From sequence record PQ505080.1: a stretch of 64,000 bases of DNA. One strand, given 5' to 3'. This document shows positions 46,886 to 64,000 of this stretch, piece after piece (the first letter of the stretch is position 1; every line of letters starts with the position of its first letter). The position numbers and the translations under genes are program-made. The DNA comes from Escherichia phage HMD-6. The notes under the pieces are model-generated. The model was not told where the DNA came from and did not search any database. It saw only the letters and a program-made list of their open reading frames with translations.

Positions 46886-47770
46886 ATGCCAAGCAATATA
46901 GTTGATGAAAAAGACCTGTACAAGCCTCAAGAGGTTAAATCTCCAAAGGCTGAAAAGGCAGAACAGCAAACTGAAAGCGATGTAAAGTACACTATGTTTG
47001 TCAGCGGTCTTAACTATGGTGGTCGCAATACGGAGATGAAGGGTAAAAACTTTACTAACGATCTTGCCATCATCTTCGATCAGATTGAGAACTACTCTTT
47101 CAAACATACTGTTGATAAGACTGATTTTGCGGTGGAAGATAAATCTACCCTGTCAGACCACGCTGTAATTAAAGATGGTGTATTTTCTTTTACTGGTAGG
47201 GTAAATACATCACCACATATAATCTATGAGCAAAACTACATTGACAGGAATACTGACTCTAAAAACCCTGCAGCATCTATGCGACCTGGCGCTGCACTGG
47301 AGGCTTTGACTGAGATCATTAATAAGCGCCAGTTGGTTTCTTTGGTTACCGAGGAAAGACTCCTTGAGAACTACATCATAACCAGCCTTTCTGCCAACAA
47401 GTCTGTTGGTGAAGGTGCTGCGATGGTGTTTGATGTAGAACTTACAGAGTTCCGCACATTCTACTTGAACAAGGTTGTTAATGCAACTGTATACAGCAAC
47501 CCTAAGAAAGTAGGCAAGACCCAGCAAAAAGGTGCTGTCAACGACTGTAAGAATGGCAGTAACGTAGGTAACAAGAGGGACACAGGGGCATTTGCAGACA
47601 CTGCATCCACAAATGCCGCAGAAGAGTGGCAGCCATACAAATCTATGATGTGGACGGATGAAAACGGTGTTACCCAATCTGCTGCTGATTGGTATTATCA
47701 GGAATATGGAAGACCTTCTACCATAGTCCCATCTGAGCAGGGAAACTACAACAAAGTTAACGGAAAATAA
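46886..47770 (+). CDS. hypothetical tail/baseplate protein
   Basis: Start set at ATG 46886 with GGAGAGG RBS (track start 46859 is 7 nt after the -10); 294 aa. Confidence 0.3.
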   Translation: MPSNIVDEKDLYKPQEVKSPKAEKAEQQTESDVKYTMFVSGLNYGGRNTEMKGKNFTNDLAIIFDQIENYSFKHTVDKTDFAVEDKSTLSDHAVIKDGVFSFTGRVNTSPHIIYEQNYIDRNTDSKNPAASMRPGAALEALTEIINKRQLVSLVTEERLLENYIITSLSANKSVGEGAAMVFDVELTEFRTFYLNKVVNATVYSNPKKVGKTQQKGAVNDCKNGSNVGNKRDTGAFADTASTNAAEEWQPYKSMMWTDENGVTQSAADWYYQEYGRPSTIVPSEQGNYNKVNGK

Positions 47771-47783
47771 GGGGGAGCGTGTA

Positions 47784-60318: not shown

Positions 60319-63300
60319 TGCCAATTGCAATGATTGATAACATCGTTGCTTCTGCAAGATCTTCAAGCTATGACTGGAACGCATCCAAGGCAGCTCTGGC
60401 TGACAGCCTGAACACTGTTACTACCAGAACTCTGGATAAGATTTTCGAGGGCAACAAATCTTACAGAAGTCAGCAGGATAGACAAAAGCTTCTCAGATCT
60501 TCTGCCGCGCCTTGCTCTGTAGTATATGGGAAGACACGTACATCTGGATTGCTTGCATTTTTGGAGCAGGATAGAGACAGAACCCTCCATTGTGCCATTG
60601 TTCTTGCCAATCACCCTCTAGAAGGTATAGAAGATATACTTATCGACGGTAATCCTATTTCTTCGTATGGGGATTTGGTATCGTGGGAGCTACATAACGA
60701 CAGAAAAACCTCTGATCCTTTCATGGGCACACACTGCCCATCGTGGTCACCGGACATGATAGGCAGAGGGATCAGTTGGCTACGGGTCAGCTTTAGGTTT
60801 GACCCTAACAAGTTTCCTTTTGGGTTGCCAAACGTAACACTCGTTAAGGTTGGTAAAAAATGCTATGATCCTCGCACCAGTAAAGAGGTGTATACCAATA
60901 ACGCTGCCTTGGTGATTCTGGACTATTTAAGAACATACCTTAAATGTCCTGACGAAACCATCAACTGGGAGTCATTCAAGGAGGCTGCCAACATATGCGA
61001 CGAGGCTGTAAGAAACGCAGACGGAACCAGTGAGCGTCGTTACACCATTAATGGTGAGTTCGACATGGATGAAGCACCAGCAAGTATTATGGCAGAAATG
61101 CTGAAAGCTTGTGGTGCAGATCTTAGCTATGTAGCTGGTAAGTATGGTTTGCTGGTTGGTGCATACTATGGTCCGGCAACAATGACACTGAGTGAGGACT
61201 GTGTCTGCGGTGAGGTTAAGATCTATCCGGAAGCCTCATTTGACAAAAGATCTAACACAATAACTGGCAGATTCACTAGTCCGACAAAAGGGTATTCTGA
61301 AACAGATTTTCCATCAGTGTTTGTCCCAGAGTGGATAGAGAAGGATGGAGAAAGAAAGATAATTGATATAGATTATCGTTTTGTTACCAGTCCTTATCAA
61401 GCTCAGCGTGTTTCCGCAATATTCTTAAGACGTGCCAGAGCTGGCAGGATTATTGAAGTAACCTGCAATATGCGGGGTTTTAAATTTAAGCCTGGACGTT
61501 ACGTTACGATGAACCTTCCAAGTATTGGTATAGTGGGCCAAGAAATGAGGGTTCTTGAATGGGAGTTCACCAAAAAGGGCGGTGTCAAGGTAAAACTACG
61601 TCAAGATGCTAAAGAGTGGAATGATGCCACAGGGCAACTTCCAGACTCTGGAGATGTAAATATTCCGATATCTCCATCTGGTGTAGCTCAACCGCAAAAC
61701 TTTAGATACTCTGTTCTTCAAGCTGGGGAAGTAACTCACGGTGTTTTGGCTTGGGACAACGTTGGGACTTATGCTCAAAACATTGTGCAGGTAAGAAAGA
61801 ACGGAGAGATTATTTGGACAGCACAAACAGTCGAACAGTTTGTCCGCGTAGAAGGATTGACAAAAGGGGCATATACAGCGACCGTGGTTGCAACATCTTA
61901 TAAAGGTGGTGTATCTCCAGAAGCATACTGCGAGTTTAACATTCAGGCACCTGAAGCTCCGGTTTCTGTAGAAGTTAAACAGGGATACTTTGCTATCACC
62001 TTGATTCCTCACAGTAGGGACTTAGCAAGTGTAAGCACCCAGTACGACTTTTGGACATCTGGTATGACAAGGTTGCCCGACACCAGTGATGCAACCGTTA
62101 CTTCAAACGCCACCCGTATGGGTGTTGGTTCAACTTGGACATCTGAAGGTCTGCAGAACGATAAGATTTATTATTGGTATATTCGAACCACAAACGCTTT
62201 TGGTAGCTCTCAGTTTGTAGAATGCGCCGCACGCTGCTACACCTCTATCGAAGATCTGATGCCTCAAATAGATGCTGAATTTAAAAAGACAGAAACTTAT
62301 AAAGAGTTGATGAGCACTTTAGATTCCTCTATTGAGGAGGTTGAGAATCGTGTCACAGAGCTTAACAAGTACATGGACGGAAGGGTAGATGAGGCATTCC
62401 AACAACTTGGGGATAGGATAGGTGCGGTAGTTACAGAGACAACTCAGAAGTTTGAGGATGTCGATGGCAATATCACAGCTCTGGATAGGAAACTTGTTGC
62501 TGCACAGAACAAGTTCACCAACGATCTGAACACTGAAAGTGGAAGACTGGCATCCCTAATCGAGACAACCAATAAAGCAACCACTGATCTTCTGAACAAA
62601 AAGACAGAGGCTTTAGACGAGAAATTGGTTGCAGCCAAAGGGGAATTGGTAGAACAAATAGGAGGTGTGGAGAGCGGATACCTTGCCGGAGATAAAACTC
62701 TAGATGGCAAGATTAATACCCAGAGAACAGAACTTGACGCAAGCATCTTAAGCACCAACCAGGCTACAGTGGATCTTCTTAACAGGACCTCTGAAACTCT
62801 GGATCAAAAGATCAGTCAGACAAATGCGACGGTATCTAAGAACTATGCCACCCTTGATGGTAAGATAACTACCGCAAAAACTGATCTCAATACCTTGATT
62901 GCCAATACCAACAAGGCCACCACAGATTTGTTGAATCAGAAAACCTCCGCACTGTCTGAGCAGATAACTTCTGCACGTGGGGAGATTTCTACCAACAAAC
63001 AGGCGATTGCGGATTTGGATGGTAAGCTGACCTCCACAAAAACAGCACTGGACGCTACAATCTCCGATACCAACAAAGCAACTGTGGATCTTATTAACGG
63101 CACAGCGTCAGCTATTCGTCAAGAACTTGCTGTTGCTAAGCAGGAGATCATTGATGATGTTGGGGATGTATCAGAGCTAAGAGCTGCAGTGGCTACAACA
63201 TCTAAGGCTGTGACCGACTTAGAGGGCAAAGTAAATGCTCAATGGGGCACAAAAATACAGGTAGACTCTGCAGGGAATAAGTATGTGGCAGGTATCCAAT

Positions 63301-64000
63301 TGGGCATGGAAGGCTCTGGAGGCCAAGTTCAATCATACTTCATGGTTAGTGCAAACAACTTTGCGGTATACAACCCTGGAAACGGAACAGCAACCCTTGC
63401 TTTCGCAATTAAGAACAACCAGGCGTTCTTGAAAGACGCCTTTATAGAGAACGGGACGATCTCTTCTGCCAAGATTGCACAAGAAATTTCGTCTAACAAC
63501 TACGATGGCAACGGGTACCATAAATACGGTTGGTATATTAACAAGAACGGGCACGCCCAGTTTATGGATGTGTGGGTGAAAGGCAACATCAACGCTAGTG
63601 CAGGTAACTTCACAGGGGCAGTTAACGCCACCAGTGGTACCTTCCGTGGGGATGTTTATGCCAATAATGGTAGCTTTAGAGGCACCATAGATGCAACCGG
63701 AGGTACCTTCCGTGGTCGTGTAGAAGCTTCTGTTATCCGCGCTAACCAGTTCGAAGGTGCAATTGTTGCACACAGGACTTACGGGGATTGTGCTCCAGTA
63801 TATAACTCCCAGCAAAGGGTTTGCCGTTGGAGGTGGAGATACGTAGATAACGTTTCAGGTCAGGGTAAGAACGTAACATTCTTCTTTAAACTGAATGGTA
63901 CTCTTGCCAGCTCCCAACTGAATGCATGGATAGCTGGTCATCAGATCCTTGCTGGCAAGAAGTATTTTAACGACAACAACGGCATGTGTGCGGTAGGGAT
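60318..64000 (+). CDS. host specificity / tail tip protein, lambda J-like (3' truncated at window end)
   Basis: Not in ORF track (no stop in window). Open from ATG 60318; segments GYFAITLIPHSRDL...FWTS...IYYWYIRTTNAFGSSQFVE and KYVAGIQLGMEGSGGQVQSYFMVSANNFAVYNPGNG parallel lambda J (GYFQITATPH...YFYIRSVNTVGKSAFVE; KHYVAGIGLSMED...FLVAANRIAFIDPANG). Confidence 0.75.
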   Translation, partial: MPIAMIDNIVASARSSSYDWNASKAALADSLNTVTTRTLDKIFEGNKSYRSQQDRQKLLRSSAAPCSVVYGKTRTSGLLAFLEQDRDRTLHCAIVLANHPLEGIEDILIDGNPISSYGDLVSWELHNDRKTSDPFMGTHCPSWSPDMIGRGISWLRVSFRFDPNKFPFGLPNVTLVKVGKKCYDPRTSKEVYTNNAALVILDYLRTYLKCPDETINWESFKEAANICDEAVRNADGTSERRYTINGEFDMDEAPASIMAEMLKACGADLSYVAGKYGLLVGAYYGPATMTLSEDCVCGEVKIYPEASFDKRSNTITGRFTSPTKGYSETDFPSVFVPEWIEKDGERKIIDIDYRFVTSPYQAQRVSAIFLRRARAGRIIEVTCNMRGFKFKPGRYVTMNLPSIGIVGQEMRVLEWEFTKKGGVKVKLRQDAKEWNDATGQLPDSGDVNIPISPSGVAQPQNFRYSVLQAGEVTHGVLAWDNVGTYAQNIVQVRKNGEIIWTAQTVEQFVRVEGLTKGAYTATVVATSYKGGVSPEAYCEFNIQAPEAPVSVEVKQGYFAITLIPHSRDLASVSTQYDFWTSGMTRLPDTSDATVTSNATRMGVGSTWTSEGLQNDKIYYWYIRTTNAFGSSQFVECAARCYTSIEDLMPQIDAEFKKTETYKELMSTLDSSIEEVENRVTELNKYMDGRVDEAFQQLGDRIGAVVTETTQKFEDVDGNITALDRKLVAAQNKFTNDLNTESGRLASLIETTNKATTDLLNKKTEALDEKLVAAKGELVEQIGGVESGYLAGDKTLDGKINTQRTELDASILSTNQATVDLLNRTSETLDQKISQTNATVSKNYATLDGKITTAKTDLNTLIANTNKATTDLLNQKTSALSEQITSARGEISTNKQAIADLDGKLTSTKTALDATISDTNKATVDLINGTASAIRQELAVAKQEIIDDVGDVSELRAAVATTSKAVTDLEGKVNAQWGTKIQVDSAGNKYVAGIQLGMEGSGGQVQSYFMVSANNFAVYNPGNGTATLAFAIKNNQAFLKDAFIENGTISSAKIAQEISSNNYDGNGYHKYGWYINKNGHAQFMDVWVKGNINASAGNFTGAVNATSGTFRGDVYANNGSFRGTIDATGGTFRGRVEASVIRANQFEGAIVAHRTYGDCAPVYNSQQRVCRWRWRYVDNVSGQGKNVTFFFKLNGTLASSQLNAWIAGHQILAGKKYFNDNNGMCAVG

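Follow-up and report, generated by a model that had tools for sequence, protein, structure and literature searches.

Two tail-end systems in one late region: a contractile baseplate core and a captured siphophage tail-tip cassette in the Vequintavirus phage HMD-6

Why should a phage with a contractile baseplate also carry a set of genes resembling the tip of a non-contractile tail? The question is raised by Escherichia phage HMD-6 (PQ505080.1), of which a stretch of 64,000 nucleotides, hereafter the window, was analysed with emphasis on its last 17 kb (positions 46886-64000). From its sequence, the window is attributed to an rV5-like Vequintavirus, a myophage of ~137 kb. The original prediction on this stretch held that contractile-baseplate genes follow the tape measure gene and that, further on, past a giant fibre, a terminator and a promoter, there lies a lambda M-L-K-J-like tip module, an arrangement considered unusual and read as module fusion or a complex baseplate. 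That reading is supported, since a siphophage cassette and a contractile core of the phi92/phiTE type are both present. The first system (46859-50568, together with two wedge genes just past the window end) is, by homology, the working tip, a simple contractile baseplate of the Pam3/phi92/phiTE type, and appears to have been inherited vertically within the Vequintavirinae. The second (from 58750 to beyond 64000, corresponding to rV5 gp40-gp37) is, as synteny, homology and distribution show, the entire tail-tip cassette of a siphophage, acquired by capture from a Queuovirinae-like donor. We hold the identity and origin of both systems with high confidence. It is further proposed that the captured cassette builds an accessory fibre mounted off the tail axis, a role whose chances we consider about even; the explanation as a whole (two systems, capture and off-axis role) is given a probability of roughly 0.65.

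The most trivial answer would be an assembly chimera or a contamination joining a myophage contig to a siphophage contig. Apart from the mixed ancestry of the region nothing speaks for it, and it can be regarded as refuted. When the region 46886-64000 was compared by megablast, 125 phage records matched, 110 of which align over at least 80% of it in one stretch at 90-98% identity (93-98% for more than 100 sequenced phages), and the two-module arrangement is therefore not an assembly artefact. The same junctions recur in more than 110 independently sequenced genomes and in metagenomic contigs, and the G+C content is even over the region (0.43-0.48), so that no compositional island is seen. Nearly all the matches are Escherichia phages of the genus Vequintavirus, vB_EcoM_SYGMH1 and ECP26 being the best. 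The coexistence of two tip systems, unusual among myophages at large as had been suggested, is fixed throughout this intensively sequenced genus. Eighteen GenBank records titled 'Campylobacter phage' (MG065635-MG065690; host Campylobacter jejuni) are 91-94% identical to the same region; they are probably mislabelled or co-isolated coliphages.

The contractile system is the more readily recognised of the two. Genes for the sheath and the tube are present in the window (phrog_205 'tail sheath', E 1e-117; PF11863; PF11681), and the tape measure gene marks the start of the distal-tail genes. As had been predicted, contractile-baseplate genes follow it, and they are homologues of the solved phi92 and phiTE baseplate core. 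The roles assigned here to the tube initiator (annotated start codon at 46886), plug, hub, spike and sheath initiator are taken from the phi92 baseplate structure (PMC13450770). For the gene at 49852, picked out earlier as gp25-like, the matches of known structure are sheath initiators, those of phiTE (9mjn, E 3e-61), phi92 (gp139, E 6e-15) and Pam3 (gp21, E 0.003). Likewise, the product of the gene at 49162, in which a spike had been suspected from a C-terminal GHTHSCPDG, matches the central spikes of phiTE (9cuy_Y, E 5e-62) and phi92 (3pqi/21vq, E 2e-18; E 2.5e-18 for 3pqi). This protein terminates in ...YKGHTHSCPDGETSGPH, and in the phi92 spike an iron ion is held at the piercing apex by H-x-H motifs (PMC13450770). 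Conservation of the hub and of the iron-tipped spike reaches 98-100% with respect to the relatives EmilHeitz and MiataMamis. In these two genomes the genes of the wedge heterotrimer, which lie outside the window, come directly after J; of the two wedge proteins (496 and 228 amino acids, aa), the 496-aa one shares 32% identity with phi92 gp145 (E 1e-67).

The second system comprises four genes, for a distal tail protein (Dit), a protein with the fold of the lambda hub protein gpL, a DUF6950 protein in the gpK position and a J-type tip protein. The J homology noted originally is strong for the last of them, which carries PF09327 (E 2e-38, 131.6 bits against a cutoff of 22), PF24489 (E 1e-30, 106 bits against a cutoff of 27) and PF24421, and which matches the lambda J structure 8iyk (E 8e-28). 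In this protein hub domains are followed by two Ig/FN3 domains, a putative coiled coil of ~320 aa and a lambda-J fibre stem. Residues 650-975 contain no proline, show a 7/11-residue hydrophobic periodicity and form a segment about twice as long as its counterpart in the siphophage SeppeHuegi; if a coiled coil, this segment would span roughly 45-50 nm. An attempt to assign a receptor from the J C-terminus failed: its sole match outside the genus, at ~30% identity, is to the J C-termini of two Queuovirinae-type phages.

The three small proteins are much harder to place. A single-sequence search of the PDB gave no match for the 196-, 183- and 141-aa proteins, and none of them had a Pfam match to lambda M, L or K. 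In a large protein database such a search collected 3 matches, and alignment-based searches were needed to gather homologues. When six-sequence profiles were compared with the PDB, Dit alone gave a match, a marginal one (the DT57C distal tail protein, E 0.1), and the L-fold and DUF6950 profiles gave none; family profiles aligned to lambda M, L and K with hhalign gave no significant result. Two structures were then predicted from alignments of database homologues. On these models, the first two cassette proteins are predicted to adopt the Dit fold of the T5 pb9 type and the gpL/DUF2163 hub fold, respectively. PF09931/DUF2163 itself is carried by some members only of the 183-aa family (one match at E 0.065 and one precomputed). 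Since no cysteine is invariant or near-invariant in the alignment of this family, an iron-sulfur (Fe-S) site of the lambda L type is unlikely. The 183-aa protein matches positions 173-359 of the 390-position phrog_2048. In some IMG/VR siphophage contigs (L025, L046, L048, L056, L083, L084) the Dit-like and L-fold proteins form a single open reading frame (ORF) of 389-391 aa, which would explain the length of phrog_2048. The DUF6950 protein has an invariant F-x-W-G-x-x-D-C motif. It has no NlpC/P60 peptidase match in a Pfam-type scan and no NCBIfam match, and its hhalign comparison with lambda gpK is non-significant (E 0.095), covering the F-x-x-G-x-x-D-C motif, or D-C region, only.

Where such a set of genes belongs is revealed by its distribution. 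The counterparts in SeppeHuegi are 33, 40, 45 and 54% identical for Dit, L, DUF6950 and J (E 1e-30, 1e-47, 2e-47 and 0), the J match extending over 724 aa, with the N-terminal hub region covered in full. In SeppeHuegi, CRP-701, PY54, phiPSA1 and Vibrio K449 alike, these four genes stand in an identical order directly behind the tape measure gene. A scan of IMG/VR retained 80 loci, 60 of them with a Dit-like ORF and at least 3 kb of upstream sequence. A tape measure homologue lies immediately upstream of the cassette in 60/60, and homologues of the window's sheath, tube, hub, spike, plug and sheath initiator occur in 0/60 of these loci. In the window, by comparison, nine genes and 11,973 bp lie between the tape measure gene and the cassette, measured from the end of the one to the start of the other (in agreement with the ~12 kb of the original prediction), in a genome with sheath and baseplate genes. 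Translated searches (tblastn) with the cassette proteins covered 50,697 phage records, and found the cassette at 95-100% identity in ~116 Vequintavirus records. The next-best matches, at no more than 57% identity, are always to genomes of 26-84 kb; these non-Vequintavirus matches comprise Queuovirinae (Seuratvirus and Nonagvirus, with 9g, JenP1 and SeppeHuegi), PY54, and Serratia, Vibrio, Pseudomonas and Roseobacter phages. Among the records searched, Vequintavirus provides the only large myophage genomes with the cassette.

A comparison with tips of known composition refines this assignment. In the Queuovirinae (SeppeHuegi, 9g, JenP1) the genes, their order and their approximate sizes are the same (194/194/144/1040 aa in SeppeHuegi versus 196/183/141/1279 aa in the window). 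Their cassette, however, stands right behind the tape measure gene and makes up the tip on the axis of a non-contractile tail, whereas that of Vequintavirus stands 12 kb away, as a late operon of its own within a myophage baseplate and fibre locus, and its J has a coiled coil about twice as long and a different C-terminal domain. The tips of RcGTA, JBD30 and R4C (Dit, DUF2163 hub, NlpC/P60 peptidase, megatron/J) share the four-part layout. The JBD30 and R4C hubs, which are longer (267-272 aa), are among the best structural matches of the 183-aa protein. In comparison with the RcGTA type (g12-g15, with a DUF2460 Dit and a DUF2163+BR0599 hub), the match to DUF2460 reaches E 0.12 only, and the third gene is DUF6950, with no peptidase match. 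The T5 tip (pb9 Dit, pb3 hub, pb4 fibre) shares no detectable sequence family membership with the cassette, and T5 is not known to have a separate gpL-fold or DUF6950 gene in a cassette-type arrangement. With the lambda tip (gpM-gpL-gpK-gpI-gpJ), the cassette has in common a J with Ig-like domains and a tail-tip fibre domain, although the J hub region cannot be aligned to that of lambda by BLASTP. On the other hand, gpM, gpL and gpK are not sequence homologues of the cassette proteins: the cassette Dit is of the predicted two-domain pb9 type and not a short gpM-family Dit, the L-fold protein falls outside the gpL sequence family and shows no C-terminal Fe-S cysteine cluster, and in place of gpK (JAB plus NlpC/P60) and gpI there is a single 141-aa DUF6950 gene, with no JAB domain, no gpI and no fifth gene. 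The description 'lambda M-L-K-J-like' is therefore apt for the architecture and not for the families, J alone being a sequence homologue of its lambda namesake; lambda-like in layout, the cassette is yet of the Queuovirinae/T5/DUF2163 siphophage tip kind.

The recipient locus is best understood from related phages, phi92, phiTE and W70, whose virions have been solved or catalogued. The tube initiator, plug, hub, spike, sheath initiator and wedge all have homologues in phi92 and phiTE. The Dit-L-DUF6950-J cassette is absent from the phi92 gene table, and phi92 is not among the tblastn matches listed or tallied by organism. For phiTE the basis is tblastn only: it is not among the matches listed or tallied, where no Pectobacterium phage occurs. 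In Septuagintavirus W70, which has no cassette, the wedge genes come directly after the sheath initiator (PMC11370258), and in phi92 the genes gp140-gp144, accessory fibre genes among them, lie between sheath initiator gp139 and wedge gp145 (PMC13450770). Comparison of these layouts with that of Vequintavirus points to the slot between the sheath-initiator and wedge genes as an accumulation site for accessory fibre modules; in Vequintavirus, the captured siphophage tip is one of these modules. Phi92 also encodes, downstream of its fibre genes, an extra protein, gp152, annotated 'lambda protein V like fold', which represents a second tube-like protein in a myophage.

Could the cassette nevertheless supply the tail axis? 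In such a scheme the tip would be a hybrid with J as its genuine central fibre on the axis, or virions would come in two forms, the same tube ending in a contractile baseplate in one and in a siphophage-type tip in the other. The cassette does form the axial tip in all the other genomes, and a Dit ring normally binds a tube ring. Nevertheless, the conserved hub and iron-tipped spike of the window have as homologues the very parts that fill the axis of phi92 and phiTE, two terminators in addition to the distance cut the cassette off from the tape measure gene, and rV5 particles have been reported as contractile-tailed only. We consider an axial J very improbable.

If the contractile core is the working tip, the cassette might be no more than cargo. 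As evaluated by the ratio of nonsynonymous to synonymous substitution rates (dN/dS) against EmilHeitz and MiataMamis, it does not look so: values are 0.02 for Dit, 0.00 for the L-fold protein, 0.06 for DUF6950 and 0.02-0.03 for J, the same range as in the baseplate core, and the L-fold protein retains 100% amino-acid identity at a dS of ~0.3. These values show that all four genes are under strong purifying selection. In addition, a second cassette allele is found in backbones that are otherwise 97-100% identical (Dit 84%, L 87%, J hub 72-96%). Its J has 1199 aa instead of 1279, with a rearranged coiled coil 80 aa shorter, and residues 1001-1279 are ~98% identical. The existence of this co-varying allele indicates that the four cassette genes vary together.

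The cassette also forms a late operon of its own. Both the terminator and the promoter placed before the second module by the original prediction have been recognised, as rV5 t041 and P040. The terminator (58659-58678; 58659-58691 in Table 1), identical in sequence to t041 (PMC3606486), is the strongest of the region. The exact promoter core TGGTAAAATA occurs at three sites in the 64 kb (38435, 43598 and 58711), each just upstream of a late gene on the + strand; with one mismatch allowed, 18 sites are found against 5.8 expected. The core agrees with the late promoters derived with MEME in the rV5 paper, where a further late promoter, P036, assigned by its name to gene 36 (the gene after J gp37), maps to the J/wedge region (PMC3606486).

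These data bear on the possibility that infection does not need the cassette, which would then be leftover cargo from recombination with a siphophage or a module of use on rare hosts only. Phi92, phiTE and W70 make working virions without it, and the Vequintavirus receptors assigned so far (NGR glycan and the lipopolysaccharide (LPS) core) have been attributed to other fibres. The low dN/dS of all four genes, the dedicated late promoter, the presence of the cassette in ~116 of the Vequintavirus records and the maintenance of two intact, co-varying alleles argue against it, and we regard dispensability as improbable.

How a retained siphophage tip could serve a phage whose axis is filled may be envisaged as follows. 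As in siphophages, the hub domains of the J trimer would fold around the L-fold protein, and the resulting J/L-fold body would dock on the Dit ring, as it does in siphophage tips; DUF6950 would take part in assembly. Since the hub and spike already fill the tail axis, this tip-like body would have to be attached beside it, on the baseplate or the fibre network. There it would form an extra long, thin receptor-binding fibre, which would add to a multi-fibre adsorption apparatus and would take no part in DNA delivery. Occasional thin 70-nm fibres were noted in the rV5 paper, and their identification with the J fibre is suggestive only. The cryo-electron microscopy (cryo-EM) study of the Vequintavirus phages Bas49 and Bas54 left some density past the head of one fibre unassigned, and pointed to a Vequintavirinae fibre whose N-terminal region was described as 'common in central tail fibers' (PMC12143355). 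A more complete version, which we consider doubtful, is that the whole siphophage tip organelle (Dit ring, L-fold trimer and J trimer) is built without tube or tape measure and mounted off-axis on the contractile baseplate. If this were true, hub proteins so far known on the tail axis only would have been recruited by exaptation to anchor a side fibre, and the new docking surface would be provided by Dit and L, which have diverged disproportionately and are invariant today.

The evidence on the off-axis role points both ways. The location and the stoichiometry of the cassette complex in the particle are proposals; moreover, an off-axis docking site for a Dit ring is known in no phage. At equal J-hub divergence, the identity of the window's Dit, L and K to their siphophage counterparts is lower than that within siphophage pairs (for the L-fold protein, 40% versus 43-64%), and this extra divergence would fit adaptation to a new partner; the signal is weak, because the pairs are non-independent and dominated by a few prophage lineages. 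Of the nine fibres annotated in Bas49 and Bas54, three were resolved by cryo-EM, and the J-like protein was not placed (PMC12143355). Peptides of gp37 were present in the mass spectrometry of rV5 virions, with thin support (4 peptides, 5 spectra, 4.2% coverage and a single fully tryptic peptide), and gp38-gp40 were not among the 19 proteins detected (PMC3606486).

The last result is what would be expected if J alone entered the virion as an ordinary lateral fibre, with the Dit-like, L-fold and DUF6950 proteins acting as assembly factors or chaperones that are then discarded and no tip-like complex displayed. DUF6950 is, at 58% identity, the most divergent part between the two cassette alleles. 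Lambda gpK is required for tail-tip assembly and is not known to be present in the mature tip. However, the same rV5 analysis also missed proven parts of the baseplate, namely the hub, plug, tube initiator and sheath initiator. The invariance of the L-fold protein at its dS would be more typical of a tightly packed structural part, and the structural matches of the first two cassette proteins, Dit and gpL-fold hubs, are described as stable virion components in the solved siphophage tips. A J acting alone is thus unlikely in our opinion, and the off-axis tip-like complex remains the reading we prefer.

The neighbouring genes, listed with the two systems in Table 1, complete the picture of the locus. 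The giant fibre of the original prediction corresponds to the 1479-aa protein, which is an allelic alternative to a 1272-aa Peptidase_S74 form; fibres of its type have been located at the baseplate wedge in the Bas49 and Bas54 cryo-EM (PMC12143355). The 110-aa gene behind it, found in 46 phage records only, accompanies this fibre allele and is missing beside the Peptidase_S74 allele, and its product has 35-38% matches beside side-tail-fibre genes of siphophages of 45-50 kb. It was considered as a fifth member of the cassette and rejected, since its distribution follows that fibre allele and the side-fibre genes of siphophages. Its product is probably a fibre chaperone or accessory protein; compared directly, it is not homologous to phi92 gp144. 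Upstream of the tape measure gene, a 157-aa tail assembly chaperone is followed by an 82-aa ORF, split into two fragments in the MiataMamis annotation, which could be the usual chaperone frameshift product. Between the tube and chaperone genes lies a 541-aa ORF (41951-43576) of the HNH/homing-endonuclease families (phrog_559, E 1e-110) with treble-clef zinc-finger repeats. EmilHeitz and MiataMamis have just ~160 bp in its place, so that it looks like a mobile endonuclease inserted in the tail operon.

Table 1. Coordinates of the tail features considered here, in window positions
Feature	Position	Strand	Evidence or remark
Sheath	39985-41361	+	
Tube	41372-41845	+	
Tail assembly chaperone pair	43650-44383	+	
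Tape measure protein, 779 aa	44438-46777	+	PF20155 TMP_3 E 5e-18; phrog_5255 E 0
Intrinsic terminator after tape measure gene (rV5 t049)	46790-46811	+	rV5 Table S4 (PMC3606486)
Tube initiator (phi92 gp135 type)	46859-47770	+	PF21821 Dit_like E 1.5e-22; EmilHeitz annotation 'tail tube initiator'
Baseplate plug (Pam3 gp18 / phi92 gp136 type)	47784-48164	+	PF22479 E 8e-19
Baseplate hub (gp27 / phi92 gp137 type)	48164-49162	+	phrog_196 'baseplate hub' E 3e-83
Central spike, 225 aa, C-terminal H-x-H apex (GHTHS)	49162-49839	+	PF18352 gp138_N E 1.4e-9
Sheath initiator (gp25 type), 238 aa	49852-50568	+	PF10934 Sheath_initiator in homologues
222-aa fibre/adaptor, TSP1/gp66-type N-terminal domain (rV5 gp43)	50578-51246	+	PF18668 E 2e-10; phrog_7760
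865-aa lateral fibre / tail protein (rV5 gp42)	51248-53845	+	phrog_2871 E 0; relative's annotation
1479-aa lateral fibre, TSP1/gp66-type N-terminal adaptor (rV5 gp41)	53881-58320	+	
110-aa protein linked to the 1479-aa fibre allele	58320-58652	+	
Intrinsic terminator closing the baseplate-core/fibre operon (rV5 t041)	58659-58691	+	8-bp stem, 7 GC pairs, T run
Late promoter (rV5 P040)	58699-58735	+	rV5 Table S4 (PMC3606486); core TGGTAAAATA at 58711-58720
Siphophage-type distal tail protein (Dit), predicted T5 pb9 fold, 196 aa (rV5 gp40)	58750-59340	+	
Tail-tip hub protein, predicted gpL/DUF2163 fold, 183 aa (rV5 gp39)	59342-59893	+	
DUF6950 protein, gpK position, 141 aa (rV5 gp38)	59893-60318	+	PF22262 E 1e-33
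J-type tip protein, 1279 aa (rV5 gp37)	60318-64000	+	window stops at residue 1227

The genes of the cassette are public, and what appears to be new here is the recognition of gp40-gp37 as one transplanted siphophage tip unit. COG4733 and hub-like HHpred matches had been reported for gp37 in the rV5 paper (PMC3606486), and the public annotations are piecemeal ('central tail fiber J', 'distal tail protein', 'baseplate protein', 'cell wall hydrolase' and 'lateral tail fiber protein with fibronectin type III domain'). In the literature searched, which excluded subscription papers, nothing was found that recognises these genes as a complete siphophage tip cassette or treats their role, nor any paper on DUF6950 or linking Vequintavirus to a J-type or central-fibre module. 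The present reading corrects scattered labels, namely 'baseplate protein', 'cell wall hydrolase', 'tail fiber protein' and 'omp-alpha'. It is also of practical relevance: few E. coli phages are isolated as often as those of the rV5 type, which are candidates for therapeutic use and for biocontrol. Of the nine fibres annotated in them, most are still without a place in the particle, and the cassette offers a concrete target by naming four proteins expected together, with Dit, L and J at ~2:1:1. More generally, it represents a natural case of the re-use of a tail-tip module in another tail architecture, which bears on the engineering of host range by module swapping.

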